Source of the DNA: Escherichia phage inny
Length of the DNA stretch: 64,000 bases
Reading direction: 5' to 3' (one strand)
Sequence record: MN850601.1
Positions 9,829-26,290 of this stretch are shown one piece after another (the stretch's first letter is position 1; the number at the start of each line of letters is the position of its first letter). The notes beneath the pieces were generated by a model that was not told the origin of the DNA, ran no database searches, and worked only from the letters and a program-made list of their open reading frames with translations. The position numbers and the translations under genes are program-made.

Positions 9829-10501
9829 ATTTTTGAGCCTCCTCATAAGAGATAAAAGTTTTACCATTGCGAAGATCCTCCAGTGATTGTTTATATTGTT
9901 CCCAGTTTACACCAATCCCCTGTTCTTTCTCTTCTTTTGACAGATTCGCAAAAGGTAAAGGATTATCTCCAAATACATCATCAGGATGGATAAACGCCAT
10001 AATTCGAATAGGACATGGCACGCCTTGAATACCTCGGTTCAAACCTGCCAGTGGAACGCGATGAATCCACTCTGCATCTTCATATCCATAACCGTGGGTG
10101 TATGAGCGGAAATAGCCAGCTTTCTCAATAACTGCACGGGAATACATACCAAACTGGCACATACCTAGTTCCCAAATAACCACTTCCCCTTCAATACCTT
10201 TTACTTTATCTTTAAAGTATTCAGGCATACCAAAGAAATCCCAACCATTTTCCTTCGCCTGTTTTACAAAATATGTTTCCCAACCTTGAACAACAGGATA
10301 GCAATCATCATCAAAAATAAACCAGTAATCATACCCTTCATCATAAAACTTTTTCATCAGTTCATTACGAGCATATGCAACACCTTTTCGTTCACGATCA
10401 TACTGTACAACAAAAGTAGCATTAGGATCAGTCACAAGATAATCTTTAAGAGGACGCTTACCTACAGTAATAACACCAACACCAATTTTTGTATTTTCCA
10501 A
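9815..10501 (-). CDS. glycosyltransferase (GT-A fold-like, DXD motif)
   Basis: 228 aa; YWFIFDDDCYP acidic DXD-type motif typical of nucleotide-sugar transferases. Confidence 0.5.
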   Translation of the reverse strand: MENTKIGVGVITVGKRPLKDYLVTDPNATFVVQYDRERKGVAYARNELMKKFYDEGYDYWFIFDDDCYPVVQGWETYFVKQAKENGWDFFGMPEYFKDKVKGIEGEVVIWELGMCQFGMYSRAVIEKAGYFRSYTHGYGYEDAEWIHRVPLAGLNRGIQGVPCPIRIMAFIHPDDVFGDNPLPFANLSKEEKEQGIGVNWEQYKQSLEDLRNGKTFISYEEAQKYGKS

Positions 10502-10510
10502 AATAACTCC

Positions 10511-11074
10511 TTAAATAATTTTATTCATGTCTTGACAATGTAAAAGGTGTGAAACAGCTTTTCTAGGATCATCATTACCTAAACGGTAGGTGTGAAATAA
10601 ATATAACCCACGTAATAAACCTAGCCTTTTGTTGTTAGCATGTAATGCTTTAGAGAAAATTATATCAAACTGTATTGACCTTTCCTCAAAAGGGATTTCA
10701 TTCCACAGACTCTTACGAAAGAGAAGAAAGAATCCTGCTAAGATAGCATCTGTAGGTACTTCCTCTATTGAGTTTCCCCATTCTAGATGTGCTCTTTTTG
10801 CAATCTCAATGTGGTGTAATATATTCGGATCTTCACTTCTTTCATTATTAAATAATTGATATGTTGATCCCAATCTGTTACAAGATGCACCAAGAACATC
10901 AAAATCAGGATTTGAACGGACAATTGATTCCAGCCAAGCAGGTTGTTCTGGAAGAAGAAACATTGTATCAATGTCTCTTAGGCAAATCCAACTATCTTCT
11001 GGTAAGACACTTATTGTGTCATTGATACCTTTTCCAATATCTCCAGAAAGATAGGGAGTTATGTGAAATATCAT
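10511..11074 (-). CDS. hypothetical protein (possible nucleotide-sugar transferase)
   Basis: 187 aa; CLRDIDTMF DxD-like segment; adjacent to glycosyltransferase genes. Confidence 0.45.
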   Translation of the reverse strand: MIFHITPYLSGDIGKGINDTISVLPEDSWICLRDIDTMFLLPEQPAWLESIVRSNPDFDVLGASCNRLGSTYQLFNNERSEDPNILHHIEIAKRAHLEWGNSIEEVPTDAILAGFFLLFRKSLWNEIPFEERSIQFDIIFSKALHANNKRLGLLRGLYLFHTYRLGNDDPRKAVSHLLHCQDMNKII

Positions 11075-12425: not shown

Positions 12426-13028
12426 TTAGATATTGTAAACCTTTGTATGAGTTACTACACCATCTTCTACAAAATCAATACGTTCTTGATCCGTAACTAG
12501 TGCAGACAACACTTTAAATTTAATTTTTACACGTTCAAAAGCTGGTTGACCATCTTTAAGATAATTATGTTCGGTTGTCACTGTCTTGTTTACAAAATCA
12601 ACTTTCGCTTTACCGTTTTCGCGCAAGTGGAATGTTTTTCCTGCTTTATACACAATTTCAACATTACCTTCGAGAGTAATTCCTTCAAAAAGTTCACCCT
12701 CTTCTTCATTTTCTTCACTTTTGAACAGACGACGAAACTCTTCCATATCAAGATAAACAACATCTTCAGAATAACTATCAGTAAGGTATGTCTTACCATC
12801 CATTAACCCGAAATATTGCCAGATCGCAGAATAAACATCACTAGTTGATCCAAGGGTTTCTCTGAGTTTAGTTCCACGGATTACTTCATAAACTTCAAAA
12901 TTGAAACCAGACTGCAAAGCATCAAACAGTACATCACTAACTTCTACAGCATAATCTTGATTGTTGTCAACATCCACAAGAAAATTGCCGCTACGAATAA
13001 GTTTTTGACCTTCTAAAGTAATACCCAT
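12426..13028 (-). CDS. hypothetical protein
   Basis: 200 aa; GAGGAG SD upstream. Confidence 0.55.
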   Translation of the reverse strand: MGITLEGQKLIRSGNFLVDVDNNQDYAVEVSDVLFDALQSGFNFEVYEVIRGTKLRETLGSTSDVYSAIWQYFGLMDGKTYLTDSYSEDVVYLDMEEFRRLFKSEENEEEGELFEGITLEGNVEIVYKAGKTFHLRENGKAKVDFVNKTVTTEHNYLKDGQPAFERVKIKFKVLSALVTDQERIDFVEDGVVTHTKVYNI

Positions 13029-13040
13029 TGTTTTCTCCTC

Positions 13041-13072
13041 TTTTATTTAAAATATGCGCCCCGAAGGGCGCT
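13041..13072 (-). terminator. hairpin GCGCCC-CGAA-GGGCGC downstream of terD-like gene
   Basis: 6-bp GC stem followed by AT-rich tract on minus strand, between 13081 stop and next gene's RBS. Confidence 0.4.
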
Positions 13073-13080
13073 ATGATTTA

Positions 13081-13677
13081 TTACTCGAACCAATCGTCGC
13101 CAGCGCCAAACGCTTTAACTACATCGTAAATGTCAAGCCCAGCTTTACCCACACCATACGCTTTCAGTTTCCATTCGCTATCTTCTCGCACCAGGGAGGC
13201 AACGTGGCAAATGGTATTACCTGCAAGTTCTGGAGCTAAGAAATCAAAATCCAGCAGTTCAACGTTACGTTCATCATCGAAGATTTTAAGGAAACCTTCG
13301 GTAGCGTGACCAAGGCGTTTTTTACCCGTTTCGTCATCAATAGTAATTACGAATGCAATTTCCTGTGCTTCAGCAGAGATATTATCCAGCGTAACATCAA
13401 TCTGCTCCATCTGTCCTACACCGTCACGAACATCTTCACCTGCAAAAGTAGAACGTTCAGGATCAAATTTCTGTGCGTAGCATACCAGGTGGCGAGGAGA
13501 CAACAGTTCCGGCAGACCAGATGCATTGTGTCGGCAAATCAGAGCACTAACATCCAGATCCAGTTTTTCGTTAGATTTCCAAGAGAATTCCAGACGAATG
13601 CGTTTCAGTGCTGGTGCAATCTTTTTCAGAGAAACTTTTTCGCTAGAACCTTTTTTCAGGGAAATTTTCTGAGTCAT
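13081..13677 (-). CDS. terD: TerD-family protein (tellurium-resistance TerD/TerE/TerZ domain)
   Basis: 198 aa; ISLKKGSSEKVSLKK, DLDVSALIC, AFVITIDD, FLKIFDDERNVELLDFDF, EWKLKAYGVGKAGL align with canonical TerD from memory. Confidence 0.85.
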   Translation of the reverse strand: MTQKISLKKGSSEKVSLKKIAPALKRIRLEFSWKSNEKLDLDVSALICRHNASGLPELLSPRHLVCYAQKFDPERSTFAGEDVRDGVGQMEQIDVTLDNISAEAQEIAFVITIDDETGKKRLGHATEGFLKIFDDERNVELLDFDFLAPELAGNTICHVASLVREDSEWKLKAYGVGKAGLDIYDVVKAFGAGDDWFE

Positions 13678-13749
13678 AATTTATTATCTCCTTTGTTGTT
13701 AATTTACGTTGTCTATTTTACTAATCTTTTCTACAAAGTCAAGCGTTTT

Positions 13750-14544
13750 TTACGCTTTTGCTCCAAATTTTTTAACCCACTCGCCAAACTCTTCGGATAG
13801 CAGTTTATCGTAAAGTTCTTCGTCAGACAAGGACAAATCTGCAATACCGATAAAATCAACATTATCGTATTCTTTTGCCAAGTCTTTCAGGAATTTAAAG
13901 TTTGCATTACCTACACCAACCATAAACCAGTAAACAGGAGTGTTGCGGTGTTTGTTCAGCAAACTACGTACTGCTGAAGTATCCATGTTCTCCCCGTCAG
14001 TTTGGAAGAAAATCATTGCAGGAGTACGATCAACTTGTGCATCAGTATCTACAACCTGTTCTACAACAGTACGTGTAACTTCTACACGTTCTTTTTTACC
14101 AGTTAGTTTAGCAAGGAAGCCCTTAGCCGGAACTTCTTCATACTCAACGACTTCGCGTGTAATATTTTTCATAGGTACACTACCGAAGTATGTATCATAG
14201 ATCTCTTGCATTACTGGAGCATAAGCTGTACCACCATTGATGCAAACATTAGACATACAAGAGCCGACATAATCATCATATACATCAGCCGTTGCAGGAG
14301 GCAGTTCAAAAGAAGAACTATTGAAAGCCCACATGTCAATCTGTGCATTATCATCAAACTTCATACCAAACGGCAGCAGCTTACCTACAAAATCACTGAC
14401 AGTGCCATCACGATACAGCTCACACATACTACCCGAAATATCTAAGGCGCTACCTACACGAAGAACAACATCGTTAATCTTTTTCTTACGCAGGGATACA
14501 GTAAGAGTTTCTTGACGTTTTTTAAGACTGATTTTATTGGACAT
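13750..14544 (-). CDS. von Willebrand factor A (vWA) domain protein, TerY-like
   Basis: 264 aa; MIDAS motif VGSALDISGSM; N-terminus MSNKISLKKRQETLTVSLRKK echoes the TerD N-terminal motif. Confidence 0.7.
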   Translation of the reverse strand: MSNKISLKKRQETLTVSLRKKKINDVVLRVGSALDISGSMCELYRDGTVSDFVGKLLPFGMKFDDNAQIDMWAFNSSSFELPPATADVYDDYVGSCMSNVCINGGTAYAPVMQEIYDTYFGSVPMKNITREVVEYEEVPAKGFLAKLTGKKERVEVTRTVVEQVVDTDAQVDRTPAMIFFQTDGENMDTSAVRSLLNKHRNTPVYWFMVGVGNANFKFLKDLAKEYDNVDFIGIADLSLSDEELYDKLLSEEFGEWVKKFGAKA

Positions 14545-14545
14545 A

Positions 14546-14815
14546 TTATTTCTCCTTTCTGACTGTAATGTTAGTAACTTCTAAATCCACTTCTACCACT
14601 TCTGTATCATATAAAATACAGTTAAGTTGACCTCTTTGTGAACCGTTCAGACACATTGCTTGGTTTGTATTAACCTTAATAAACACTAAGTTTCTGAACG
14701 TATCTAAACCAGCATCTTGATAGGCAACATAATATACGAATGTATCACCTGTGTCAAGTTCTCCAAAACATTTAGGTTCATCTGATTTGTCGTCTTTGAT
14801 ATTAAATTTAAGCAC
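14546..14815 (-). CDS. hypothetical protein
   Basis: 89 aa ORF. Confidence 0.5.
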   Translation of the reverse strand: MLKFNIKDDKSDEPKCFGELDTGDTFVYYVAYQDAGLDTFRNLVFIKVNTNQAMCLNGSQRGQLNCILYDTEVVEVDLEVTNITVRKEK

Positions 14816-15371
14816 TGTCTTCTCCTTTACCTGCTCTCAAGCCTAAATAGAAAGCCTCTCTGGTGATCTTTTGCAACTCGTTTAAAGAGATAGTTACAAC
14901 TAAATCATCTTCAATTTCTAGCTTTGAGTCTTCTTCTGTCTCAATGCAAGTATTATGCACTTTGTGGTAAGGATTGTCAACACGTTTAAATTTATTATTT
15001 TCAGTGCTGAAGAAGCAATCTGGATCTTCTTCCCCATCACCCCAACCCTGGTTAGGATCTTCTTCAGATCTTTCTGTTGGGATCTCGCCTGTAAAGTGCT
15101 CTTCTAATACCAGAGCAATCCCATCTCCAAGATCGGAAGAGAACATCAAATTACAAACTTCTTCCCAAGGCATAGACCACTTAAATCTTTTACGATTGCC
15201 ATGTTTATCTTCTTCGTTAGAGAAAACACTACCATAGCTATCATAATTCCCATACATCTCTTCGACAACCTTACCACCTTTCAAAAGAAATAGGTAGCAA
15301 GGAGAGCCATCGAAAGAGGTAGAAAGAGCAGCATTACCAGACTCTTTGCACAAGAAACTAAAACACCCCAT
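14808..15371 (-). CDS. hypothetical acidic protein
   Basis: 187 aa ORF. Confidence 0.5.
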   Translation of the reverse strand: MGCFSFLCKESGNAALSTSFDGSPCYLFLLKGGKVVEEMYGNYDSYGSVFSNEEDKHGNRKRFKWSMPWEEVCNLMFSSDLGDGIALVLEEHFTGEIPTERSEEDPNQGWGDGEEDPDCFFSTENNKFKRVDNPYHKVHNTCIETEEDSKLEIEDDLVVTISLNELQKITREAFYLGLRAGKGEDSA

Positions 15372-15571
15372 TATACACCAGCCTTAAGATCAATTAAAGC
15401 CAAAGTTGTTTCAGAGTGTGTTTGCTCGTCTACAGGTGCAGTCATATGATAATACAAAAAATCTTCGGCATCATACCAATCTGATTCTTGACCTTGTTTC
15501 CAACCATCAATGAAAGCATCTTCCATAATGGTTTGCAATTCTTCACGAGTTAAGTGAATATCTTTACTCAT
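15371..15571 (-). CDS. hypothetical protein
   Basis: 66 aa ORF, overlapping stop/start with neighbours. Confidence 0.45.
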   Translation of the reverse strand: MSKDIHLTREELQTIMEDAFIDGWKQGQESDWYDAEDFLYYHMTAPVDEQTHSETTLALIDLKAGV

Positions 15572-15777
15572 TACACATTTTCCTCTTTTACCAATTCCAT
15601 TGTTGAATTGTCAAAACCATCTTTAGAAGAATAGGTATAGACAGCACGTAGTTCTCGCAGGACAGTGAATACATTAGGATCATCTAACCAAGCATCCTGG
15701 AGGAGAACATAACGATCTTCATTGTCATACTGGACAGCAATCATAGAGCCAGACAGTTTGTAAATTTTAATATTCAT
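15571..15777 (-). CDS. hypothetical protein
   Basis: Track ORF 15571..15804 trimmed to ATG (MNIKIYKL...) with AAGGAG SD. Confidence 0.45.
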   Translation of the reverse strand: MNIKIYKLSGSMIAVQYDNEDRYVLLQDAWLDDPNVFTVLRELRAVYTYSSKDGFDNSTMELVKEENV

Positions 15778-15790
15778 AATATATTTCTCC

Positions 15791-16894
15791 TTAAAGTAGA
15801 CCACGTTTAACAGTTTGAATCATACCATCTTCAAGAGATTGCACTTCTTGAATGTAATCAATACGAGCAGCACGGGCTTCAGTGTTGATTCGGTTAGTTT
15901 CTTCCAACATTTTAACTAAGTTTTCTTGATCACGACGCAATGTTTCAATATCCAATACTTGACGATTAGCAAGTTGTGTAGCTTCAATCTGGTTTTGTGC
16001 AGCCAGATCACTACCCATTGCAATAGCAGCATTAAATTCATTCAGTACGTTGTTCTGTGTATCGGCTGCTTTCTTCTGGCGCAGACTTTCAATATACATA
16101 GAAAAGTTTGCAGAGTAAGCAGGAATAACATTGTTCACAATATTACGGGCTGATCGCATCAAACTTGCAGATACTTTCTGCATACTTTGTACACGTGGCC
16201 CCATCTGAACGCACAGTAAGCGTAAGGCTTTCAGGTCTGCAATACGAATTTCAAGCAGATCCATAGTGTCACGAGTACGTTGACGCTCTTCTACTTCATT
16301 TTCAGGTAGTGTATTAAGGCGAACTTCTTCTTTTTCATAAGTAGCTGTTAGAAGCTCTATATCCCTGTTTAAGCTAAGAGCATATTTTGCAATAGCCTCC
16401 TCTAAACGTTGCAGATATCGTAAAGAATCTTCTTCTTTTTTCAAGTCTGTTTGGAGTGTCTTTACCAAACCCTCAATACGATTATTGATGGTGTCAAATT
16501 CTCCAAACAAATCTTCTTTCATACCTAATACTTTCTTAACTAACTTACCTAAACCTTTAGATTGTTTAATAGAATTAGGATCAAGTTGCTTTGCTTGCTT
16601 AATAAGTGCAGTTAAACGTTCACTCATTTCATCTCCCTGAGATGAACGCTGGTGTTTAAGCACTTCAGCATTAAGGTTACGAAGAGTAAGTCCTGCATCA
16701 GCACCAACTTGTTCAATCTCTTCACGAGACATTGGAGGCAGCATTTGTACAGGTCGTGCAACAGCAGGGGCATATACAGGACTTGCATCCATAGCACTTG
16801 GAGCAAACAAAGACTTACTTTTTTCTGTTGTTGCCGTGAATACACTCATTTCAGACGGTTTGCTTTTTACGGCACTGATAAAAGGACTGGACAT
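15791..16894 (-). CDS. TelA/KlaA-like toxic-anion-resistance family protein
   Basis: 367 aa, coiled-coil rich; KQLDPNS and C-terminal LDIETLRRDQENLVKMLEETNRINTEARAAR resemble TelA family as recalled; sits inside the Ter-like cluster. Confidence 0.6.
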   Translation of the reverse strand: MSSPFISAVKSKPSEMSVFTATTEKSKSLFAPSAMDASPVYAPAVARPVQMLPPMSREEIEQVGADAGLTLRNLNAEVLKHQRSSQGDEMSERLTALIKQAKQLDPNSIKQSKGLGKLVKKVLGMKEDLFGEFDTINNRIEGLVKTLQTDLKKEEDSLRYLQRLEEAIAKYALSLNRDIELLTATYEKEEVRLNTLPENEVEERQRTRDTMDLLEIRIADLKALRLLCVQMGPRVQSMQKVSASLMRSARNIVNNVIPAYSANFSMYIESLRQKKAADTQNNVLNEFNAAIAMGSDLAAQNQIEATQLANRQVLDIETLRRDQENLVKMLEETNRINTEARAARIDYIQEVQSLEDGMIQTVKRGLL

Positions 16895-16962
16895 TCAATT
16901 TCCTCCATATTCTTTAGTAGATGGTGATACCTCTGTACCACCATCATAACACAAATTAAGTA

Positions 16963-17814
16963 TTAAACAAACATATCTAAATAATTTGTAGTAATAAATG
17001 CTCCATCTGCTTCCAGATTAACATAACCAGTAGCATTAGTGGTTAAGAAATCCAGATCGAAGGACTCTTTAACACCCCGTACCTCAACACGAGAGATATC
17101 GAATACAGGTAGTGTAACAGCCTCTTCGTGCAATACCGTACCTTTGTAGGTTGCCTTAATGATAAACTTGATATTACCCGTTCCAGCATCATACAAAACA
17201 CTTTCAAACCCTTTGAGAGTATATTTATCACCAGAAGTGAAGTGCAAAGTTGCTTTGTTTACAGTACGTTTTTTACGAGGAGTTCCTTTCACACGTTTAT
17301 GATCACTACGTTTTTTGTATTTAGGAATGAATACAAACGATACACTCTCAAGAAAGGTATCAACATCAAGGATTTTAATATCCTCTGTTGCAGCAAATTT
17401 TGAAGTCGTTGCATCAAAATGCTTTTCCCTGCGATCATACATAAAGATATCAAACCGATCTTCTAAATCAAACAAATTATGTATTTTAATTTCAGAATGC
17501 TTGCGCATTGCAGCAACCTTGAACTCTTCAAAACGTGGGTGTTCTACAAGTTCTTCAAGTTTTACACCAAAGACAGTATATTGCTTCGAAGTCTTTTCTG
17601 GTGTTGGCATTACAGAAGCATAATCACCGATTGCGCTCTTAAAGCAAAATTGTTCTTGACCTGTATTTTTACCAACGAATTTACAGTATTCGTCATTGTG
17701 CATACTTTCCTTAGTAGTACCAACAAACTCAAAACCATCTTTATTCTTCTCAAGGATTTCTTGATTAAAGATCCAACCTTCCAGGCGATATACTTTACCA
17801 ACTTCTAGTTTCAT
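16963..17814 (-). CDS. hypothetical protein
   Basis: 283 aa ORF. Confidence 0.55.
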   Translation of the reverse strand: MKLEVGKVYRLEGWIFNQEILEKNKDGFEFVGTTKESMHNDEYCKFVGKNTGQEQFCFKSAIGDYASVMPTPEKTSKQYTVFGVKLEELVEHPRFEEFKVAAMRKHSEIKIHNLFDLEDRFDIFMYDRREKHFDATTSKFAATEDIKILDVDTFLESVSFVFIPKYKKRSDHKRVKGTPRKKRTVNKATLHFTSGDKYTLKGFESVLYDAGTGNIKFIIKATYKGTVLHEEAVTLPVFDISRVEVRGVKESFDLDFLTTNATGYVNLEADGAFITTNYLDMFV

Positions 17815-17849
17815 CTGTTTCTCCTTCTTATTTAATCTGTATTAAATTA

Positions 17850-18440
17850 TTAACGACGACGTGAGCTACTAAAACTACGTTTCGACGAAGAATAACTTTT
17901 CGAAGACTTACTATAAGAGCTAATAGGGCTTGAGTAAGACTTACGAGCAGAGTAATCACTATTCACTTTTGTTGTTGACGGGCGTGAATACGTTTGTACA
18001 CTTTGCTGCTTAATTGTGTTTTGTTTAGTGGTTGTATATTTATTTCCTTGTTTATCATAAAAACTATGCTTTTGTGTTGTATATGCTTTACTGTTAGTTG
18101 TAGGAGCAGCGTTGTTATTAATAATTGTTGTACTGCTACCACCATCTCTATAACCGCCACCGCCACTATTACCACTCAACATATGACCAAGAAGCATACC
18201 TGTAGCAAACTCACCTACACCAGAAGAACCACTGCCGCCTCCTTGCACAACAACTGTTGAAGGTTGTGCAGGTGCTGCTTGAACAACTTGAGGTGCAGGT
18301 TGATTTACATATTGTTCATCTACCATCTGATTTGGTGTTTGTTGGTAACGTTGATTTTGTACATTTTCAGAATCATCACAACCTACCAGCAATGCACTAC
18401 CTAATACAACTGCAACAATAAAAGATTTAATGTTTTTCAT
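17850..18440 (-). CDS. lipoprotein
   Basis: Track ORF trimmed to ATG (MKNIKSF...) with GAGGG SD; signal peptide + lipobox LLVGC; Gly-rich then S/Y-rich tail. Confidence 0.6.
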   Translation of the reverse strand: MKNIKSFIVAVVLGSALLVGCDDSENVQNQRYQQTPNQMVDEQYVNQPAPQVVQAAPAQPSTVVVQGGGSGSSGVGEFATGMLLGHMLSGNSGGGGYRDGGSSTTIINNNAAPTTNSKAYTTQKHSFYDKQGNKYTTTKQNTIKQQSVQTYSRPSTTKVNSDYSARKSYSSPISSYSKSSKSYSSSKRSFSSSRRR

Positions 18441-18633
18441 TTGTAACCCTCTCATTTAAAGTCTCAACACAATTTTTAAAATCCCTAGAGAAACAATACA
18501 TCTGTTCTCCGTTCCTGTTGATAGTAATTGTATGGTTATCAATATATGTTGTCAAGATAAAAATCAAACAAAACAACCCTAGAGCAAAACAAATATTTTC
18601 AAACAGAATCCAAAGAACACGTAAAACCACCAT
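18427..18633 (-). CDS. small hydrophobic protein
   Basis: 68 aa with hydrophobic stretch; short and overlapping. Confidence 0.3.
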   Translation of the reverse strand: MVVLRVLWILFENICFALGLFCLIFILTTYIDNHTITINRNGEQMYCFSRDFKNCVETLNERVTNEKH

Positions 18634-18672
18634 CAGATCACCTCAACAAAGCCCCCGAAGTGGCTTAATGAA

Positions 18673-19650
18673 TTAAGCAACAGTCTGGTCTTCTTTTTCA
18701 GGGAAGATTAAACTTGCAATAACACCCAACCCAAGAGTACCTAACACAATATACATACTGATCGTCGGATCAATGTGTGCTGGCAGGAAACTCACTTTTG
18801 CGTGCAGAGTTTCTGCAAACGGATGATACATCAGTTTTACACCCACAAACACCAGGACTACGATAACTGCTTTCTCCAGATGAACCAAATACTTCAGTGC
18901 AACACTAAGAACAAAGAACAGAGCACGTAAACCTAAGATTGCACAAAGCATCGAAGAGAACACCAGCAGAGGTTCTTGTGTCACTGCAATTACTGCTGGA
19001 ACAGAGTCTACTGCAAAGATTACGTCTACCATTTCCATTACAAACACACAAACCAGAGCCGGAGTTGCTACACGAACACCATTTTTGATTGTGAAGAACT
19101 TCTCACCATCCATCTGATCAGATACAGGGAACAGCTTACGAACAATACGAGTAGCCCAGTGTTTAGAGTAATCAATTTCTGCATCATTATCCCCAGCGAA
19201 TACCATTTTAGCCGCACAGAAAAGGATGACAGCACCGAAGAAGATATTAACATACCAGCCCAAACTCAACAAGTAAGTACCTACTGCTACAAACACACCT
19301 CGGAAGACAATTGCACCTGCAATACCCCAAAGTAGAATCTTGTGCTGCAAGTGTGTGCTTTTAATACCAAAACTTGCGAAGACTGCCACAAATACTACTA
19401 AGTTATCTACAGAAAGAGATTTCTCCAACACATAACCACTCAAGAACAAGCTCGCAAAATCAGCACCGTGTTGGAAGTATACAAAACCATAGTAGGCTAA
19501 TGATACCCCAATCCAGAAAATTGACCAACCAATTGCAGATTTAAATGAGATCTCTTTGTTTTCTCTGTGTCCAAAGAAGTCAATACAAATCGACAAGACT
19601 AAAATACCCACTAAAACAACCACATCAATAATTGGGAAACCCAGTTGCAT
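18673..19650 (-). CDS. terC: TerC-family integral membrane protein
   Basis: 325 aa polytopic; LEKSLSVDNLVVFVAVF and AVDSVPAVIAV repeat motifs. Confidence 0.8.
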   Translation of the reverse strand: MQLGFPIIDVVVLVGILVLSICIDFFGHRENKEISFKSAIGWSIFWIGVSLAYYGFVYFQHGADFASLFLSGYVLEKSLSVDNLVVFVAVFASFGIKSTHLQHKILLWGIAGAIVFRGVFVAVGTYLLSLGWYVNIFFGAVILFCAAKMVFAGDNDAEIDYSKHWATRIVRKLFPVSDQMDGEKFFTIKNGVRVATPALVCVFVMEMVDVIFAVDSVPAVIAVTQEPLLVFSSMLCAILGLRALFFVLSVALKYLVHLEKAVIVVLVFVGVKLMYHPFAETLHAKVSFLPAHIDPTISMYIVLGTLGLGVIASLIFPEKEDQTVA

Positions 19651-19664
19651 TCTTTTCTCCTCTT

Positions 19665-19690
19665 TAATGCGGAGGACAATCCTCCGCTCT
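19665..19690 (-). promoter_or_regulatory. hairpin GCGGAGG-N5-CCTCCGC in 5' leader of terC-like gene
   Basis: 7-bp inverted repeat 15 nt upstream of the terC-like start. Confidence 0.3.
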
Positions 19691-19727
19691 ATGTCTTATA
19701 CTATAAACTGTTTTTAAAGAAAGTCAA

Positions 19728-19976
19728 CTAGTTCAGTTCTGTAATTTTAAGTTTATCTTCTTTGTTAATGATAGGGAAAGCTACAGCATCACCTACGTCA
19801 TCAATAAAGCAAATAGCAATACCACCTTCCACTTTGCTAATCTGACCATTAAAGGCATGATACGGGGCAGGAACTTGATCTCCATCTTCAAGGAGAATAG
19901 CCTCGTAAACCTTGCCGATAGTACAATCACGAGTGTTTCTAAATTTTTCAAGCACTTCAACATTTACTTTACGCAT
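19728..19976 (-). CDS. hypothetical protein
   Basis: 82 aa ORF. Confidence 0.5.
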   Translation of the reverse strand: MRKVNVEVLEKFRNTRDCTIGKVYEAILLEDGDQVPAPYHAFNGQISKVEGGIAICFIDDVGDAVAFPIINKEDKLKITELN

Positions 19977-19990
19977 ATAAAAATCCTCTC

Positions 19991-20197
19991 TTATTTGTTA
20001 GATTGAAAGATACCACGAAGTACCGCAAGAATGAACGTCACACAGACTACACTCCAAAACGTTACAGGAACATGATGCCAGTCTAAACCGATAATGTCAA
20101 TCATATAGTTGTATGCTAAAAGCAGTAGCCAACTAGGGATTAACACAATCAAGAACACAACAATAAAACAACCTAATACTGCTAAAACACCTGCCAT
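19991..20197 (-). CDS. small membrane protein
   Basis: 68 aa, two hydrophobic helices. Confidence 0.5.
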   Translation of the reverse strand: MAGVLAVLGCFIVVFLIVLIPSWLLLLAYNYMIDIIGLDWHHVPVTFWSVVCVTFILAVLRGIFQSNK

Positions 20198-20206
20198 ACT
20201 TTCTCC

Positions 20207-20923
20207 TTATTTCAGTTTGTAAACAATTACATTTAAACCTTTGTTCACTAGAGTTTCTTCGATCATAAGTTTTACAATATTCCAAGAACCTCCAGCCAAA
20301 CCACAACCAAGCATTGGTAAACCTACAATTTTACCGCCTGAAGATACAACATCGTCTCCCATACTATCTAACGCATTGTAGATAGCTTCATAATTCAGGT
20401 CACGCTTACCTTCCTCACGACGACTATAACCATATTGTCCATATAAATTATAAATTGTCAAATTGTTTTCTGTATATTTGGTAAACGTACCTAATTTTTT
20501 ATAATCACCACGTTTAGTGGCACAATCTGCTTTAAACGCACCAGGCCACTTGCTTTTAATTTTTGGTGCAATACCACTACCCATAGTGCAAAAACAGTTA
20601 CAGCAGTGTGCTATAGCGTCTATATCGCCTCTCTCGGCTGCTGCTAAAAGATCACCGTATACCTCAATGATACCTGCCGGATAACTTGTTACAATTTCAT
20701 CTTCCCAATACATTTTCTCTACACCACCGATCAGTGCAAAGTTTTGTGTAATGCGATCATCAATATAGTTAAGACCTGAAACATACACAGCGTATTCATC
20801 CTGTGCTGTAATACCTTGCACACGAATTCTTAAGACACCATCTTTATCTGTTGCTACACGCCCAAAATCTTTTTCTGTAATATTGGTGATAGGATCTCCG
20901 AAAGTCATTACTTTATTAGACAT
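20207..20923 (-). CDS. macro-domain (ADP-ribose binding/processing) protein
   Basis: Track ORF trimmed to ATG (MSNKVMTF...) with AAGGGGA SD; IDAIAHCCNCFCTMGSGIA and LPMLGCGLAGGSW resemble macro motifs. Confidence 0.6.
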   Translation of the reverse strand: MSNKVMTFGDPITNITEKDFGRVATDKDGVLRIRVQGITAQDEYAVYVSGLNYIDDRITQNFALIGGVEKMYWEDEIVTSYPAGIIEVYGDLLAAAERGDIDAIAHCCNCFCTMGSGIAPKIKSKWPGAFKADCATKRGDYKKLGTFTKYTENNLTIYNLYGQYGYSRREEGKRDLNYEAIYNALDSMGDDVVSSGGKIVGLPMLGCGLAGGSWNIVKLMIEETLVNKGLNVIVYKLK

Positions 20924-21773
20924 AATAATCCCCTTTAACATTAGGTTTGTTGATAATGTTGCTTTCAAAAAATTGACGTAGGAAATCAAAGTTCTCTTTG
21001 TATTTTTCAATGTTATTGTAACCTTCTGCAAGGCAACCAAAGAACAGTTGTTCTACATAATACAAAGGAAGTTGTGAAAGTGCAATTTTAAAATCAACTT
21101 CGCTTTGACTCATTAGATACTTAATAGGACGAACCAAACATTTAGCATCAGCTTCTTGCTTAATCATTTTAATAAAAGCTGCCAGATTATTGATATAGTT
21201 GAAGTTAAGTGCAGCTTCGGTGTTGGCTTCTGTACCTTCATACTTTGCAAAGTACAGGAAAAACGTATCGTTTTCAACACCTTCTTTGTCTAAAATTTCA
21301 ATAAGTTTTTCTTCGTGTGTTCCTGTAATATTAACATCATCAATGAAAATCAGAGTTTTATTACCCCAGAAATCACGATTGATAGAGAAAGTGTCACCAT
21401 CGATCAAAGCCTTACGATCTTCTTTGCTAAGAAATCCATAATCATTGATATAGCTCACTTTACGATGAACGATATCCCACTCCACTGGTTTACCACCTTT
21501 GATAGAGATTAGGTAGTTGAGGTGATCTACAAAATGTTCAGATAACACTGTAGCTGCATTTTTCACATAGTTATATGGAGATGGAATAACAACAAAACTT
21601 TCATTTACCAGTCGTTCTTCATACTTAGAAAAGAAACTTTCAGCCAGAATGCGCCCCATTCTTTTTGCTGCCTGGTTACTACCAAACTTTAGTTTGGAAT
21701 AATCTGCAATGTTAAATTTTGCTTCCTTCAGGTTAGTAAAAGTATTAGCAAAATGTTGAATTTGATTACGCAT
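20916..21773 (-). CDS. phosphoribosyltransferase (PRTase)-like protein
   Basis: 285 aa; TLIFIDDVNITGTH resembles PRPP-binding motif. Confidence 0.5.
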   Translation of the reverse strand: MRNQIQHFANTFTNLKEAKFNIADYSKLKFGSNQAAKRMGRILAESFFSKYEERLVNESFVVIPSPYNYVKNAATVLSEHFVDHLNYLISIKGGKPVEWDIVHRKVSYINDYGFLSKEDRKALIDGDTFSINRDFWGNKTLIFIDDVNITGTHEEKLIEILDKEGVENDTFFLYFAKYEGTEANTEAALNFNYINNLAAFIKMIKQEADAKCLVRPIKYLMSQSEVDFKIALSQLPLYYVEQLFFGCLAEGYNNIEKYKENFDFLRQFFESNIINKPNVKGDYYV

Positions 21774-22422
21774 TAATAAGTTCCTCTTTTTTAAGTTTAG
21801 CCAACAAGTCTTCTGGATTAATAATATGACAGAACTTCATCCCTATGTCAACAGCTTTTCCATCATAAATCAAACTATCTCCAACGTGTAAAATCTCTTC
21901 TGGTGCGAGATCAAACGTCACCATTTCATCAAAAGAGAGTTTAAAAAACCTAGGATCTGGTTTACACAAGCAAAACTCGTCAGAAAAATGCATAAAGTCA
22001 AATGGTAATTTTGTTAAGCCAGAATATACAGCTAAGAAACTACCTGGTACAAAATTAGTATTGCTCTTAATACTCAAAGAGTAGGTTGAACTTAGCTCTT
22101 CCAACTTCTTGCAAAGTTCAGGATTCAATGTTGGAGGATGTTTTATAAACATTGCCAAACAATCTCTTTTTAACCCATCCACTTTATCAAGATCAATGTT
22201 CAAACGAGTAGAAAGTGTTACCCAAGCATCCTTAGACGTTCCACAAATGCCTTTTTCTGCTTTTAAATCCAAGAAAGTTTTTACCTCTTTGTATACGGTA
22301 GCTGCTTCTGCCTCAGAGCAAGAGGCATACTCGGCAATAACCTTGTTGCGCTCTTCTGCATACAAAGGGTTAGCAGTAATAAGAGTATTCCATACATCAA
22401 AAGAAATATGCTTAACAGTCAT
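21766..22422 (-). CDS. HAD-superfamily hydrolase
   Basis: Track ORF trimmed to ATG (MTVKH...) with GGAGGA SD; motif I ISFDVWNTL, motif IV HVGDSLIYDG. Confidence 0.55.
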   Translation of the reverse strand: MTVKHISFDVWNTLITANPLYAEERNKVIAEYASCSEAEAATVYKEVKTFLDLKAEKGICGTSKDAWVTLSTRLNIDLDKVDGLKRDCLAMFIKHPPTLNPELCKKLEELSSTYSLSIKSNTNFVPGSFLAVYSGLTKLPFDFMHFSDEFCLCKPDPRFFKLSFDEMVTFDLAPEEILHVGDSLIYDGKAVDIGMKFCHIINPEDLLAKLKKEELINA

Positions 22423-22591
22423 TTTTAATCCTCCGTCCAAAAGAATATCATCTGCTTAATTTTATTGATTTCTTGATGTAGTAACTTTCCAGCATGTGAT
22501 TGATCTTTAATATTGACAGCAAGAATTTCAAGTTCCGTTAGTTTTTCTTGGATAGCTTTATATTCATCATCTGTAAGCATTTTCTTCCCCT

Positions 22592-22783
22592 TTAGAATGG
22601 TAATCTTTGTATGTCACTTATCCCCACACCAAGAAGTCTAGCAATATCCTTATCTAAAAGCAACTCTTTTTGTTCTAAAATGTTAATCAGATCTCCTAAT
22701 ACTTCTTTAATGTCACGATCATTTTTAGCAACGTGACCACCTGCTGTATCAACTTTATCTTTAAAAACAAAGTAATGATCCAT
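22592..22783 (-). CDS. hypothetical protein
   Basis: Track ORF trimmed to ATG (MDHYF...) with GGAGGG SD; 63 aa. Confidence 0.45.
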   Translation of the reverse strand: MDHYFVFKDKVDTAGGHVAKNDRDIKEVLGDLINILEQKELLLDKDIARLLGVGISDIQRLPF

Positions 22784-22795
22784 AATACCCTCCAT

Positions 22796-22828
22796 ATAAA
22801 TAAAGGAGGCTTTCGCCTCCTTTTATCA
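22796..22828 (-). terminator. hairpin GGAGGC-N4-GCCTCC with flanking T tracts
   Basis: Perfect 6-bp stem immediately downstream of AAA ATPase gene stop. Confidence 0.45.
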
Positions 22829-22829
22829 C

Positions 22830-23990
22830 TTAGTAAGAACGACCACCAAACACATACTCTGTGTAGTTTTTACGTTCTTTGTTTTTAATAACAACTTCAA
22901 TGTTGTTGCCTTTATCATCGGTGAACACAAAGTGATAACCGTCACCACCCATTGTACGGATGTGTTTTTCATCATACGTCAGCAAGATACGGTCTACACC
23001 CCAGTAGTAGTCACCTTCTTCATCTTTGTCTTCTACTGTAACGACCCCTTCCATTTCAGGAAGATGCTCCTCTCCTAGCTTATGGTCTACAGCTACAACA
23101 TAACGATTACCGCTAAACAAACCCTGTGCTGTCATACCGTCAATATCGGTATCTGCCGAAACATCTCCTGTACGATCTACACCGTTAACTTTCAGGAGTT
23201 TAACTTCTTTTGCAGCATAGCGGTGTTCAGTAATACTGATACCCATTAATGCAAGTGCATCAGAGAATTTGTCATTAGGGTAACGGTTAAGTTCTTCTAC
23301 TAGTGACTGAACAATATCAAAGTTCAAGTCCACGGAAAGATTATAAAGCGTTTCAAAATCTGGTAAAAAGGCTTTGTTCTCCAGATTTTTAGCCAGATAG
23401 TCATCCATAGTAGCTTTAGGTAGTTTCTTATAGCTAAAACTGTAGAAAATACGGCTAGGACGATTACGCAAAAATTCTGATACATAACCATCATTTTTAG
23501 TCAATACAAACAGCTTGTCATAGCCACCTACACCATCCAGCAGAGTAAGCAAACCATCCTGTGCATCTTTTTCAGCATACAGTTTATCAAATTCATCGAT
23601 CATAATCATCACAGGTTGTGTGATTTTAGACATAAAATTGATAAAGCCTTCGCCATTAAAAGCACTACCGATAGAAATAGTAGGAATACCCATTTCACGA
23701 AGAGCAGAAGACAGCATTTTAGCTTGCAAAGTTTTACCACTACCCTTCGTACCCTCAAGGAGAACACCTGTGTTTTTACCTTTGCGGCTAAGGAACGTCT
23801 TGATAATACGTTCTGATTTATCATCAGTATCACCGTATGTTACTGAAGGGACTTCCATATCGTTTTTAGGATACAGGAAGAACTCACCACTTTGAGTAAC
23901 ACCTACACCAAAAGTTCCTGCTGGAATTTCTTCAATATCTGTACCAGATTTCTGACGCAGGAAGATTTGATTGCCGAATACTGTAAACAT
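22830..23990 (-). CDS. AAA+ ATPase (classic AAA clade)
   Basis: 386 aa; Walker A GTKGSGKT, Walker B IMIDEFDK, LLTLLDG, FLRNRPSRIFYSF; paralog of 39536..40663. Confidence 0.75.
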   Translation of the reverse strand: MFTVFGNQIFLRQKSGTDIEEIPAGTFGVGVTQSGEFFLYPKNDMEVPSVTYGDTDDKSERIIKTFLSRKGKNTGVLLEGTKGSGKTLQAKMLSSALREMGIPTISIGSAFNGEGFINFMSKITQPVMIMIDEFDKLYAEKDAQDGLLTLLDGVGGYDKLFVLTKNDGYVSEFLRNRPSRIFYSFSYKKLPKATMDDYLAKNLENKAFLPDFETLYNLSVDLNFDIVQSLVEELNRYPNDKFSDALALMGISITEHRYAAKEVKLLKVNGVDRTGDVSADTDIDGMTAQGLFSGNRYVVAVDHKLGEEHLPEMEGVVTVEDKDEEGDYYWGVDRILLTYDEKHIRTMGGDGYHFVFTDDKGNNIEVVIKNKERKNYTEYVFGGRSY

Positions 23991-24010: not shown

Positions 24011-24481
24011 TTAGTCAGATTCCCAAATGTTGTCTTTCTTAACCCACATTCGTTGATTATCTGAACCTCTATAACGTTTCGTTGTTGGTTGATTCATATC
24101 ATACTTACCATCTATCACTATGTCAACCAGTTTTTTAATTTTCTCTGGAATTTCTTCAAAAAGATATCCTGTATATAAGACAATATCTTTTTTGTTTCCA
24201 AAACAATCTCTTACCTTCTCAAGAACATACTCTACAGTGTCAATGTTCTCTTTGTCAAGAGGTTCACCACCTAAAACTGTTAATCCTTTAATGAAAGGTC
24301 GAGATAAATCTTCCAAGATAAGATCTAATGTTTCAGTAGTGAACTCTTGTCCGTAGTTATACGACCAGGCTTTCTGGTTAAAGCAGCCACGGCAACCGTG
24401 GCTACAACCGCTCACCCACAAAGAGCATCTTACACCATCACCGTTGAGCATGTCAACAGGTTCATATCCGGCGTAATTCAA
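24011..24481 (-). CDS. nrdG: anaerobic ribonucleotide reductase activating protein (radical SAM)
   Basis: 156 aa; LNGDGVRCSLWVSGCSHGCRGCFN (CxxxCxxC cluster); directly downstream of nrdD. Confidence 0.9.
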   Translation of the reverse strand: MNYAGYEPVDMLNGDGVRCSLWVSGCSHGCRGCFNQKAWSYNYGQEFTTETLDLILEDLSRPFIKGLTVLGGEPLDKENIDTVEYVLEKVRDCFGNKKDIVLYTGYLFEEIPEKIKKLVDIVIDGKYDMNQPTTKRYRGSDNQRMWVKKDNIWESD

Positions 24482-26277
24482 AAATGTTTCTCCCTTTCTA
24501 GTACCTCTTGCATTTTACCTTTATTATAAGGGCGAGAGTTAGGGGCAGAAAGGTATCCTGACACTCTTCTGATTACAGATATAGATTCTTCCTCATGATT
24601 GCCACAACTTGGACACTCGAAGCCTTTAGCTGTTGCCTTAAATTCACCATGAAAACCACATTTGAAACACTGATCTACAGGTTGGTTCACGCCAAAATAA
24701 GGAATTTTGTTGTAGGCATAATCTACAAGAGTTTCCAGTGCTTGCAAGTTATTTTTAAGGTTTGGTGTTTCTACATAACCTATGTTCCCACCGTTACTGA
24801 TTTGTGCAAAACCTTCCTCATAATCCCACTTTTGGAACGGGGTAGTGTGCATCCACACAGGTTGATGGAAAGAGTTTGTCAAGTAGTCACGATCAATAGA
24901 ACCAGGATAGCGATCATTTAATGCTTTGGCAAATTTATAGCACAAGGATTCTGCTGGTGTTCCATACAAACTAAAAGCTAAACCAGAACGTTCTTTAAAT
25001 GTGCCACAGATATCCTTCATATATTGAAGGATGTTTTTACCCATTGCTTTTGGATTGGTGTTACCTGGGTATAAAATCTCCATAGCTTCTGCTAAACCTA
25101 CATAACCGATACTAATAGAGGCATAACCACCTTCAAATAGTTTACCAATCTCTTCATTAGCTTCTAGTCGAGCTAAAGCCCCTTCCATAAACAATGTAGG
25201 GTTTTGAGATGCTTTGGTATGTCTAATACGGTTAACACGTAGCATATGTGCCTTATACGCCATCTCCATATGTTGTTCCAACAGTTCAGTAAATAAGATG
25301 CCCTTTTCACGGGACTCTGCTGCAATGATAGGTAAGTTTAAAGAAACTACGCCTAAGTTGAAACGACCATCATATTTTTCACCTTGCTCTGTTGCATAGT
25401 ATGACAAGAAGCTACGGCAACCCATGCTTGTGACGCGACCATCTGAAGATCCTGTAACTTCTTTATTTAAAGGTACAGAGATAAAATCAGGATAAATGCG
25501 TTCAGCACAACACTCCATTGCCAGTTGCTTCAAATCATAGTTTGGATCGCCAGCTTTCATGTTAACACCATCTTCCAAGAAGAAGATAACTTTAGGAAAC
25601 ACAGGAGTTACCCTATCTTTTCCCAATCCTTGTTTGTGCACCATTAGGTAGTTTTTAGTGATCATTCTACCAAAAGCAGAGGTATCCAAACCTAAACTAA
25701 TTGTTATAAAAGGTGACTGACCATTTACACTCATTAGAGTGTTCACCTGGTAGATTAAAGTTTGCATTGCATCATAGACCTGTTTATCTACCATACGCAT
25801 AGCAATATCATAATCGCCAACATCGGCATATATTTTATTAAAACTTGCTTTAACGTATTGACTAAGCCCAGTATCAACATGTGCACAAGTTTGTCCACCA
25901 TATTGGCTAGAAGCTACTGCTTGAATAATTTGAGTTAGGACAGTAGTCGCTACACCGATAGATTTTGGTTTTTCAATATGTGCATTACCAATACGGAAAC
26001 CGTTCTCAAGCATATCTTGGTAATTTACCAGGCAACAATTAGTTAAAGGTGAGAGTAAATAATCTAAATCGTGAATGTGACCATACCCACTTTTATGCCA
26101 TTCTGCCAGATCTTCCGGTAAAATATGGGTCATTGCCATGTGCTTGCTTAGGATACCTGCTAGTAAGTCTCGGTGAGTATTAACAATCATTGCAGGTTTG
26201 TTTGCATTTTCACGAGTAAATTCTTCGGATGTTTGTTCGAGGAATCCGATTACATCCTCATATAGTTTTTGGGTCAT
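24478..26277 (-). CDS. nrdD: anaerobic ribonucleoside-triphosphate reductase
   Basis: Track ORF trimmed to ATG (MTQKLYED...) with GGAGGA SD; C-terminal zinc ribbon CFKCGF...CPSCGN and glycyl-radical region IRRVSGYLSAPNSRPYNKGK. Confidence 0.92.
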   Translation of the reverse strand: MTQKLYEDVIGFLEQTSEEFTRENANKPAMIVNTHRDLLAGILSKHMAMTHILPEDLAEWHKSGYGHIHDLDYLLSPLTNCCLVNYQDMLENGFRIGNAHIEKPKSIGVATTVLTQIIQAVASSQYGGQTCAHVDTGLSQYVKASFNKIYADVGDYDIAMRMVDKQVYDAMQTLIYQVNTLMSVNGQSPFITISLGLDTSAFGRMITKNYLMVHKQGLGKDRVTPVFPKVIFFLEDGVNMKAGDPNYDLKQLAMECCAERIYPDFISVPLNKEVTGSSDGRVTSMGCRSFLSYYATEQGEKYDGRFNLGVVSLNLPIIAAESREKGILFTELLEQHMEMAYKAHMLRVNRIRHTKASQNPTLFMEGALARLEANEEIGKLFEGGYASISIGYVGLAEAMEILYPGNTNPKAMGKNILQYMKDICGTFKERSGLAFSLYGTPAESLCYKFAKALNDRYPGSIDRDYLTNSFHQPVWMHTTPFQKWDYEEGFAQISNGGNIGYVETPNLKNNLQALETLVDYAYNKIPYFGVNQPVDQCFKCGFHGEFKATAKGFECPSCGNHEEESISVIRRVSGYLSAPNSRPYNKGKMQEVLEREKHF

Positions 26278-26290
26278 TAATCCTCCGTGG

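Follow-up and report, generated by a model that had tools for sequence, protein, structure and literature searches.

The genome of Escherichia phage inny (sequence record MN850601.1) carries a run of genes related to the Ter systems of bacterial plasmids. The run lies at positions 13081-22422 of the 64,000-nucleotide stretch analysed here, which is referred to as the window, and the seven proteins after which it is named are all encoded on the minus strand, as stated in the initial annotation of this DNA. These are a TerD-domain protein, a von Willebrand factor A (vWA) protein of the TerF type, a TelA-family protein, a TerC-family membrane protein, a macrodomain protein, a phosphoribosyltransferase (PRTase) of the PRTase_3 family and a hydrolase of the HAD superfamily (Table 1). 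Profile searches agree with these family assignments, the HAD protein scoring just under the Pfam gathering threshold, and every peptide string quoted in the initial annotation is present in the open reading frames (ORFs). The seven genes had also been described as contiguous, but they are interspersed with ten other ORFs to which no function could be assigned. The 9.4-kb run is 99.8% identical to that of Escherichia phage ALITA and 98% identical to that of phi92, in which the equivalent region extends from gp172 to gp187, and it is matched over its full length in 54 phage records, nearly all from the genus Justusliebigvirus (subfamily Stephanstirmvirinae). By this measure, the source phage is a phi92-like Justusliebigvirus. 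All genes to the left of ~38 kb are transcribed leftwards, and the GC content is even across the window, the run included. The proposed setting in a replication and nucleotide-metabolism block next to nrdDG is borne out by the polymerase, primase-helicase, NrdG, NrdD and UvrD-type helicase genes found there; four glycosyltransferase-like proteins and a cell-wall hydrolase are also encoded in the flanks.

Table 1. Features of the Ter-containing run and its surroundings (positions are those of the window; gp numbers refer to phage phi92)
Feature	Position	Strand	Basis or remark
Terminator-like hairpin GCGCCC-TTCG-GGGCGC	13056-13071	-	9 nucleotides past the TerD stop; taken as downstream boundary
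TerD-domain protein, 198 amino acids	13081-13677	-	PF02342, E 5e-28
Sigma-70-like promoter, TTGACT, 16 nucleotides, TAAAAT	13715-13742	-	Gap between vWA and TerD
vWA-TerF-like protein, 264 amino acids	13750-14544	-	PF10138, E 7e-39
Four ORFs, gp177-, gp176-, gp175- and gp174-like (68, 66, 187 and 89 amino acids)	14546-15777	-
TelA-family protein, 367 amino acids	15791-16894	-	PF05816, E 5e-34; PHROG 'tellurite resistance'
ORF, 283 amino acids, gp179-like	16963-17814	-	Stephanstirmvirinae only; not shown to be a Ter component
Predicted lipoprotein, 196 amino acids, gp180-like	17850-18440	-	Signal peptide, lipobox LLVG-C, Asp +2, G/S/Q/N-rich body
Small single-pass membrane protein, 68 amino acids, gp181-like	18427-18633	-	Weak DUF6693 match below cut-off
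TerC-family polytopic membrane protein, 325 amino acids	18673-19650	-	PF03741, E 1e-38; TIGR03718, 322 bits against a cut-off of 246
Sigma-70-like promoter, TTGACT, 16 nucleotides, TATAGT, with stem-loop GCGGAGGA-TTG-TCCTCCGC, then ribosome-binding site and TerC ATG	19669-19727	-
Small ORF, 82 amino acids, gp183-like	19728-19976	-
Small membrane protein, 68 amino acids, two hydrophobic segments, gp184-like	19991-20197	-	Conserved in Stephanstirmvirinae
Macrodomain protein, 238 amino acids	20207-20923	-	PF01661, E 2e-7, residues 106-217 only
PRTase_3 (ComF-like type I phosphoribosyltransferase), 285 amino acids	20916-21773	-	PF15610, E 1e-41
HAD-superfamily hydrolase, 218 amino acids	21766-22422	-	PF00702, E 1.3e-5, 26.2 bits, just under gathering score of 26.4
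Small ORF, 51 amino acids, gp188-like	22425-22580	-	Read from sequence; annotated in phi92 and Paula
Small ORF, 67 amino acids, gp189-like	22592-22795	-	phi92 record: helix-turn-helix putative regulator; no Pfam match
Terminator-like GC-rich hairpin with T-run	22802-22823	-	Directly 3' of the AAA-ATPase gene; taken as upstream boundary
Family-A DNA polymerase	2768-5347		Flank
T7-type primase-helicase	5844-7616		Flank
NrdG	24011-24481		Near the run
NrdD	24478-26307		Near the run
UvrD-type helicase	28613-30388		Flank

Together, these genes provide what characterizes a Ter system in the broad sense, as reportedly delineated by Anantharaman, Iyer and Aravind in 2012, namely a TerD-domain protein, a TerC protein with intramembrane acidic residues, TelA and a TerF-type vWA protein, and a linked PRTase and HAD protein. 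Full-length comparison of TerC with its counterpart in an IncHI2 ter island gives 47% identity, and comparison with Escherichia coli Alx gives 37%; at the DNA level the gene resembles terC only, never alx, in E. coli genomes. Neutralization of five acidic positions in Alx, E86, D92, E213, D216 and D222, is known to abolish Mn2+ export (PMC10197570). These align, with identical spacing, with E76, D82, E206, D209 and D215 of the phage protein, which by this alignment keeps all five acidic residues needed by Alx for Mn2+ export, and the five positions are widely conserved among viral TerC homologues. TerD aligns end to end with Klebsiella TerD (2kxt, E 8.6e-15) and retains the DLDVSA motif. In place of the canonical Ca2+-binding loop GDNxTGEGDGDDE it has the sequence GEDVRDGVGQME, which is shorter and has lost three acidic positions; the shortened loop is found in Stephanstirmvirinae, while some other viral TerD proteins retain the canonical GDNLTGAGDGDDE. 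TerD is encoded by a single ORF and the vWA protein contains no full TerD domain, so the multiple TerD paralogues of the classical operon are missing. The metal ion-dependent adhesion site of the vWA protein is complete (D35-I-S-G-S, GGT104 and TDG182) and conserved in all viral homologues aligned, and the protein has a lineage-specific insert of ~40 amino acids. TelA is predicted to be soluble, with no transmembrane segment. Its AlphaFold2 model, built from 17 sequences, consists of long helices throughout and is of low confidence (predicted local distance difference test score 60, predicted template modelling score 0.40), too poor for a fold search, and a sequence search of the PDB returned nothing useful for either TelA or PRTase_3.

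The two enzymes at the upstream end of the run form a pair with unusual features. Several NCBIfam HAD-IA models match the HAD protein, every one below its cut-off. Motif I reads F-D9-V-W-N-T, in which the nucleophile Asp is present and the Asp at +2 of the usual D-x-D-x-T/V signature is replaced by Trp, and motifs II (SNTNF, 120), III (the Lys of CKPD, 153) and IV (GDSLIYD, 181) are all present. The +2 position is occupied by Trp or Tyr (Tyr in one) in 19 of the 19 viral homologues aligned and by Trp in both bacterial partners, and FDVWNTL is also found in an uncharacterized archaeal protein (PDB 2om6). PRTase_3 has a type I PRTase fold with an intact loop for phosphoribosyl pyrophosphate (PRPP), DDVNITGT at residues 145-152. 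Its closest solved fold is that of ComFC from Helicobacter pylori (PDB 7p0h), with 12% sequence identity, and an extra C-terminal helical domain of ~100 amino acids sets it apart from ComFC and the type I nucleobase PRTases. The HAD stop overlaps the PRTase_3 start by 8 nucleotides (21766-21773), and the two genes are probably translationally coupled.

The linkage of this pair to Ter genes was followed across viral genomes by scanning IMG/VR with a PRTase_3 alignment, which gave 22 loci and, with four annotated phage loci, a set of 24 outside the genus. The HAD gene lies directly upstream of PRTase_3 in all 24, often with an overlap of 4-8 nucleotides. Within 10 kb of the pair, TerC is encoded in 13 loci, TerD in 12 and TelA and vWA-TerF in nine each, and no other family recurs, which upholds the connection between Ter proteins and a PRTase and HAD module from which the initial annotation had started. 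The Ter genes beside the pair occur in at least five distinct gene orders. In two phage-like metagenome contigs, TerD, vWA, HAD and PRTase_3 genes stand in series, in one of them also with TerC, and on a Hymenobacter plasmid the pair is found beside genes for three TerD proteins, two vWA proteins, a PP2C phosphatase, a kinase and a DUF475 membrane protein. As TerD-like genes are present in only 147 of 50,697 phage records, this neighbourhood is far beyond chance. An overlapping HAD (FDVWNTL)-PRTase_3 pair with 36-42% identity to the phage pair is also encoded on plasmid pRL10 of Rhizobium johnstonii (107669-109142) and on 14 other Rhizobium plasmids. In pRL10, the sole rhizobial neighbourhood examined, no Ter gene is annotated near the pair; Rhizobium phages also carry it.

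The arrangement is conserved within this group of phages. It is syntenic between Justusliebigvirus and Phapecoctavirus, with amino acid identities of 81% for TerD, 79% for TelA, 72% for TerC, 67% for vWA, 65% for PRTase_3 and 49% each for HAD and macro, and synteny is also kept in the Klebsiella and Citrobacter lineages. All seven named genes are under strong purifying selection: in comparisons with Paula and phi92, the ratio of non-synonymous to synonymous change (pN/pS) is at most 0.09 for each of them, and TerD and vWA show no non-synonymous against 8-11 synonymous changes. Within this pattern, TerC stands out in some Phapecoctavirus-type genomes (Mt1B1_P17, tuntematon, phiWec188 and the metagenomic relative L011), where it is 94-95% identical to that of the window, whereas in other Phapecoctavirus genomes it is 72% identical and the flanking genes are 50-80% identical, which points to an exchange of terC alleles between the two genera.

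The phage set is clearly different from the classical terZABCDEF/terWXY island of IncHI2 plasmids and E. coli O157 (for example in pMCR_W5-6). TerC, the TerD domain, the TerF-type vWA protein and a biosynthetic module with PRTase and HAD proteins are shared. However, the island has five TerD paralogues, TerB, an ATP-grasp enzyme, a 380-amino-acid PRTase, StiP, an HpcH-type lyase, a canonical D-x-D HAD protein (DLDDT), terW and a TerY/TerX kinase/phosphatase set, and it has no TelA. The phage, in contrast, has one TerD, no TerB, a TelA, and just the D-x-W HAD protein and PRTase_3, neither of which has a match in the island. Identities to the classical E. coli ter island are 47% for TerC, 28% for TerD and 27% for vWA, and DNA similarity to E. 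coli terC amounts to 69% over 31% of the gene. Because TerC, TerD and vWA are shared at 27-47% identity, TerB and the paralogues are missing, TelA is added and the HAD and PRTase proteins are unrelated, the phage set is best described as a Ter system in the broad sense that is neither of the classical operon type nor a recent host capture. An origin as a host-derived island, which the initial annotation had named as a finding that would undo it, is not upheld. A further comparison is provided by the yceCDEFGH envelope-stress operon of Bacillus subtilis, part of a host stress regulon, which encodes TerD paralogues, the TerC-family protein YceF and the TelA-family protein YceH. Like the phage set it combines TerD, TerC and TelA without TerB, but unlike the phage set it has several TerD paralogues and no PRTase_3/HAD pair.

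Phage-borne Ter genes have been noticed before, and the view that their combination in a phage is new does not stand. The phi92 record of 2012 already labels gp172 'putative stress protein', gp178 'toxic anion resistance', gp182 'membrane bound tellurium resistance', gp186 'putative orotate phosphoribosyltransferase' and gp187 'hydrolase', and in records of relatives infecting E. coli K-12 the trio is labelled phosphoribosyltransferase, macrodomain and HAD-like. TerD and TelA matches of phi92 were given in a cocktail study of 2015, and 'alx-like ter cluster genes' of unknown function have been reported in phi92-like phages in 2024 (PMC11162368). Phage Ter systems with PRTase and HAD 'signal biosynthesis' were described by Iyer, Anantharaman, Krishnan, Burroughs and Aravind in 2021, who proposed a role in superinfection exclusion and gave as examples Acinetobacter phage ME3, Caulobacter jumbo phages and 'related smaller tailed phages' (PMC7824862). 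The protein classes are the same as here (PRTase and HAD, TerD, TerC, TerF-type vWA and TelA), but that study focused on jumbo phages and named ME3 as the one with PRTase and HAD, whereas here the full set is found together in a non-jumbo lineage of 145-150 kb. Similar Ter clusters are also known in other virulent phages of Pseudomonas and Klebsiella (PMC9796965, PMC8386662). Pseudomonas phage phiPsa374 (terC, terD, terF and telA) and Klebsiella phage phiKp34, both virulent, have the same four-gene core, but no PRTase_3 relative was detected in the phiPsa374-type Pseudomonas phages, and TelA identity is just ~22%. The feature was therefore known already as annotation and hypothesis, and the additions made here are modest: the HAD-PRTase_3 pairing is invariant in viruses, motif I of the HAD protein is atypical, TerD has a degenerate loop, TerC has kept its transport residues, an early-type promoter cassette stands in front of TerC and the macro gene is reassigned.

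The macro gene overlaps PRTase_3 by 8 nucleotides (20916-20923), but its homologues are found in 2908 phage records, compared with 156 for PRTase_3, and nearly all of these lack any Ter gene; it adjoins PRTase_3 in Stephanstirmvirinae only. Residues 88-238 score best against the DarG antitoxin macrodomain (5.5e-13 with NCBIfam and 1e-13 with PADLOC models), and in the PDB the domain scores best against SCO6735 (5e3b, 3e-15), BT1257, TARG1 and DarG. Gln163 (YGQYG) takes the position of the catalytic Lys of TARG1 and DarG, as a Gln does in SCO6735, and GCGLAGG is present. SCO6735 reverses the ADP-ribosylation of thymine in DNA and rescues cells from the toxicity of DarT. Over residues 88-226, the phage protein shares 30% identity with T4 Tk.4 (BLASTP E 9e-18), renamed AdfM, which is needed for growth of T4 on DarTG2 (preprint, bioRxiv 10.1101/2025.11.20.689424). 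The phage protein thus shares homology and active-site layout with Tk.4/AdfM and with the ALC1-like macrodomains of DarG, SCO6735 and TARG1, but differs from Tk.4/AdfM in having an 87-amino-acid N-terminal extension. Since its homologues are widespread without Ter genes and it is of the Tk.4/AdfM and DarG/SCO6735 type, we read it as an embedded counter-defence gene and not as a Ter component. The most likely activity of the enzyme is the release of thymine-linked ADP-ribose from phage DNA, which would counter DarT2-type defence. The extension (residues 1-87) is restricted to the genus, with ~69 records. Its coding region (20663-20923) is weakly similar (33% over 69 amino acids) to a separate ORF of 188 amino acids, which Klebsiella-type relatives have between the PRTase_3 and macro genes (9505-10071 of locus L009), which suggests a gene fusion in Justusliebigvirus.

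The run appears to be delimited by two terminator-like hairpins, the upstream one coinciding with a terminator marked in the record of phage Paula, and two candidate promoters lie inside it (Table 1). The promoter in front of TerC begins directly past the stop of the gp183-like ORF and is followed by an 8-bp stem-loop (19669-19687). A host-dependent promoter is independently annotated at this site in the phAPEC8 record, and promoter and stem-loop are kept in phAPEC8 and three metagenomic relatives. The stem-loop alignment is small, with just five rows, of which two have the same stem sequence. In it, 95% of cells are paired, compared with 52-65% in slid controls, and five of the eight pairs show compensatory changes on both sides across four lineages. 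As no U-run follows on the coding strand, the stem-loop is more likely an element of the 5' untranslated region than a terminator. The same architecture recurs in 12 cassettes at 43915-52997 on the plus strand, a promoter-dense region of small ORFs, and we infer that the TerC element is an early-type promoter cassette of this phage. Each of the 12 has a sigma-70-like promoter (TTGACA, 16-18 nucleotides, TAnnnT) with a GC-rich stem-loop within ~10 nucleotides, for example GGCGGGAAATGGTTTCCCGCC or GGGCGGCAATAGTGCCGCTC, and they resemble early promoter units in which each mRNA opens with a 5' hairpin.

We propose, with a probability of roughly 45%, that the run contains a native, abbreviated Ter system of Stephanstirmvirinae phages, which is expressed early, conditions the membrane and cations of the infected cell and protects the infection, and that the macro gene is separate from it. 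In this proposal, the module would be transcribed early by host RNA polymerase. PRTase_3 may join PRPP to a base or another acceptor, and the atypical Asp-x-Trp HAD protein may convert the product to a small nucleoside-like compound. At the inner membrane, TerC, two small membrane proteins and the lipoprotein would form an assembly with TerD, vWA and TelA; the neighbours of TerC are biased towards the envelope, including a two-segment membrane protein, a single-pass membrane protein and the lipoprotein, for which a SignalP note is also present in the phi92 record. The assembly would condition the membrane and the divalent-cation balance of the cell and might thereby shield the infection from later-arriving phages, pore-forming colicins and membrane-directed abortive infection. 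Such protection would be the phage-side counterpart of what ter operons confer on plasmid-bearing cells, namely phage inhibition and colicin resistance. In bacteria, insertions in terC, terD and terZ abolish phage inhibition and colicin resistance, and TerC-TerD has been identified as the minimal functional unit (PMC12054061). It is possible, although doubtful, that the role of the pair is a more specific one, in which the D-x-W HAD protein and PRTase_3 make a nucleoside-like signal that switches on the viral TerD/vWA/TelA/TerC membrane complex, as an immune-like pathway that shuts the cell to competitors or to suicidal host responses.

Several points weigh against the proposed protective Ter system. 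The literature searched held no experimental test of any phage Ter gene. TerB is reported to be essential in the classical ter operon, and no match to it was found among the ORFs of at least 60 amino acids in 12426-23990 when compared with Pfam. With its degenerate loop, TerD may have lost classical Ca2+ binding. The label 'phosphatase' for the HAD protein is insecure because the general acid/base Asp at +2 is missing, and ComFC is a protein of the DNA-uptake machinery with a zinc finger and not a proven nucleobase PRTase. About half of the unrelated viral loci carry the pair without a Ter gene within 10 kb, and Otagovirus-type phages have Ter genes without PRTase_3; as each is found without the other in some phages, the Ter and HAD-PRTase_3 halves can work apart. 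In CcrColossus, for instance, no Ter gene lies within 15 kb of the pair, which is ~28 kb from TerD, and in XaC1 the pair and the TerD-like gene are ~165 kb apart. PADLOC 2.0 models gave no match for TerD, vWA, TelA, TerC, HAD or PRTase_3, macro alone matching (DarG), and the promoters were recognized by consensus matches only.

A role in metal homeostasis is an alternative that we consider unlikely. TerC would export Mn2+, Zn2+ or Ca2+ from the infected cell or metalate exported proteins, with TerD, vWA and TelA as accessory proteins that bind metals or have a regulatory part, and cytoplasmic metals would be tuned for the replication enzymes without any exclusion of competitors. The retention of all five Alx Mn2+-export residues, also across viral TerC proteins, and the position of the module in the replication and nucleotide-metabolism block beside nrdDG are in keeping with this. 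In Klebsiella, a terC mutant loses resistance to Zn, Mn and phage, and the operon is induced by Zn and Mn (PMC12054061). However, metal homeostasis leaves the recurrent linkage to a PRPP-using enzyme pair unexplained, the TerD Ca2+ loop is degenerate in this lineage, and the Rfam scan of the whole window gave no match and specifically no yybP-ykoY Mn riboswitch or other element before TerC. Resistance to phages and colicins is lost in these bacterial mutants as well, so that the present data do not allow a metal role to be told apart from one in exclusion.

It is rather improbable that the run is a counter-defence block as a whole, in which HAD-PRTase_3 alters pools of PRPP, nucleotides or ADP-ribose-derived compounds alongside the macrodomain, for instance through destruction or mimicry of an immune signal of the host or through renewed synthesis of a depleted metabolite, while the Ter membrane proteins neutralize depolarizing host effectors. 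The macro gene stands beside the pair only in Stephanstirmvirinae, and the reading of an extra phAPEC8 gene, described below, as a 2H phosphoesterase has no Pfam or PDB support. In addition, the bacterial pair sits on the host side with TerD, vWA, kinase and phosphatase genes, and for this reason a signal-making role fits better than a signal-destroying one. That all seven proteins, macro included, form one pathway, in which the PRTase, HAD and macro proteins make a nucleoside-like metabolite that drives the Ter proteins, is very improbable. It was in this form that the initial annotation had placed the macro gene among the PRTase and HAD enzymes, and the head-to-tail overlaps of the HAD, PRTase_3 and macro genes and the presence of macro after PRTase_3 in every Stephanstirmvirinae lineage examined speak for it. 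This reading is already weakened by the great excess of macro records without PRTase_3, by the identity to Tk.4/AdfM and by the DNA-thymine de-ADP-ribosylating type of the domain. Moreover, in unrelated viral HAD-PRTase_3 loci no macro gene is found within 10 kb (in XaC1 it is 8 kb off, with unrelated genes between), in phAPEC8 macro does not overlap PRTase_3, and in Klebsiella-type loci an ORF lies between them. Finally, a passenger island (moron) lately captured from the host and with no role in the lytic cycle is hardly credible: TelA and TerC do fall into the PHROGs category 'moron, auxiliary metabolic gene and host takeover', and enterobacterial plasmids often carry Ter islands (2334 plasmid records with TerD-like genes), but it is already contradicted by the mere 28-47% identity to the E. 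coli ter island, the limited DNA similarity to terC, the lack of a PRTase_3/HAD counterpart there, a GC content equal to that of the rest of the window, and synteny across genera of orthologues that are only 49-81% identical and under strong purifying selection.

Among the remaining ORFs in and around the run, the gp171-, gp174-, gp175-, gp176-, gp177-, gp179-, gp180-, gp181-, gp183-, gp184- and gp189-like ones could not be given a function by searches of Pfam, PHROGs, NCBIfam and PADLOC. Every Stephanstirmvirinae locus examined has the gp189-like ORF upstream of HAD. The gp175-like protein (14808-15371) was considered as a Ter partner since it is 76% conserved between genera, and was rejected: its N-terminal ~140 residues belong to a large, strongly conserved phage family without a Pfam domain, with 294 relatives at 50-65% identity in unrelated phage contexts and no Ter genes nearby. 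As this family occurs without Ter genes, the four gp174-gp177-like ORFs are not demonstrably Ter components. The gp171-like ORF (200 amino acids, 12426-13028) lies just past the TerD terminator, and its pN/pS of 0.15-0.41 points to faster evolution than that of the Ter genes. In an iterated search, one homologue turned up with TerC and vWA genes on either side, on an unrelated viral contig (L014, 4474-4965); this is a single case, and gp171 itself is beyond the terminator. The AAA ATPase (22830-23990) was likewise rejected as a member of the module, being absent from phAPEC8-type loci and upstream of the terminator. Phapecoctavirus and Klebsiella-type relatives have an extra 201-amino-acid gene just upstream of HAD (phAPEC8 gp047, 8745-9350 of the phAPEC8 locus) that is absent from the window; its product has two H-x-T/S motifs (HLTLS and HIKTS) reminiscent of 2H phosphoesterases, an assignment that was tried and dropped for the reason given above.

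Some observations concern the wider window and related records. The nrdD gene is a single unbroken ORF of 609 codons in the window, whereas the phi92 record gives it in two joined pieces as a 'spliced variant' (gp192/gp193); phi92 therefore appears to hold an nrdD insertion or intron that this phage lacks. The four glycosyltransferase-like genes stand in a row on the minus strand (7898-11074), between the primase-helicase and the lysis/Ter region, and one of them (9815-10501) has a weak, sub-threshold match to a TET-associated glycosyltransferase. No tRNA was found by an ARAGORN scan, and the 'hypothetical tRNA' of phi92 inside the AAA gene was not reproduced. Four GenBank records labelled as Campylobacter jejuni phages ('Campylobacter phage' A150, A145, B15 and C3; MG065639, MG065645, MG065650 and MG065656) contain a module 99-100% identical to E. 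coli Justusliebigvirus or Phapecoctavirus genomes, and their host was probably misassigned, unless these are contaminant records.

Virulence and resistance plasmids of Klebsiella and E. coli widely carry ter operons, the role of which has been unclear since the 1990s. The phage set is a stripped-down version, with TerC, one TerD, vWA, TelA and a two-enzyme pair under strong selection, and phages that carry the module, for example EmilieFrey, JohannJBalmer and PaulScherrer, grow on E. coli K-12, which makes it a convenient place to test how Ter proteins work. In practical terms, the macro gene is better annotated as an AdfM-type gene of counter-defence, and the label 'HAD phosphatase' should be used with caution. 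If the module is indeed a signal and effector pathway, its six core genes in a culturable E. coli phage would be the simplest available system in which to study Ter function.

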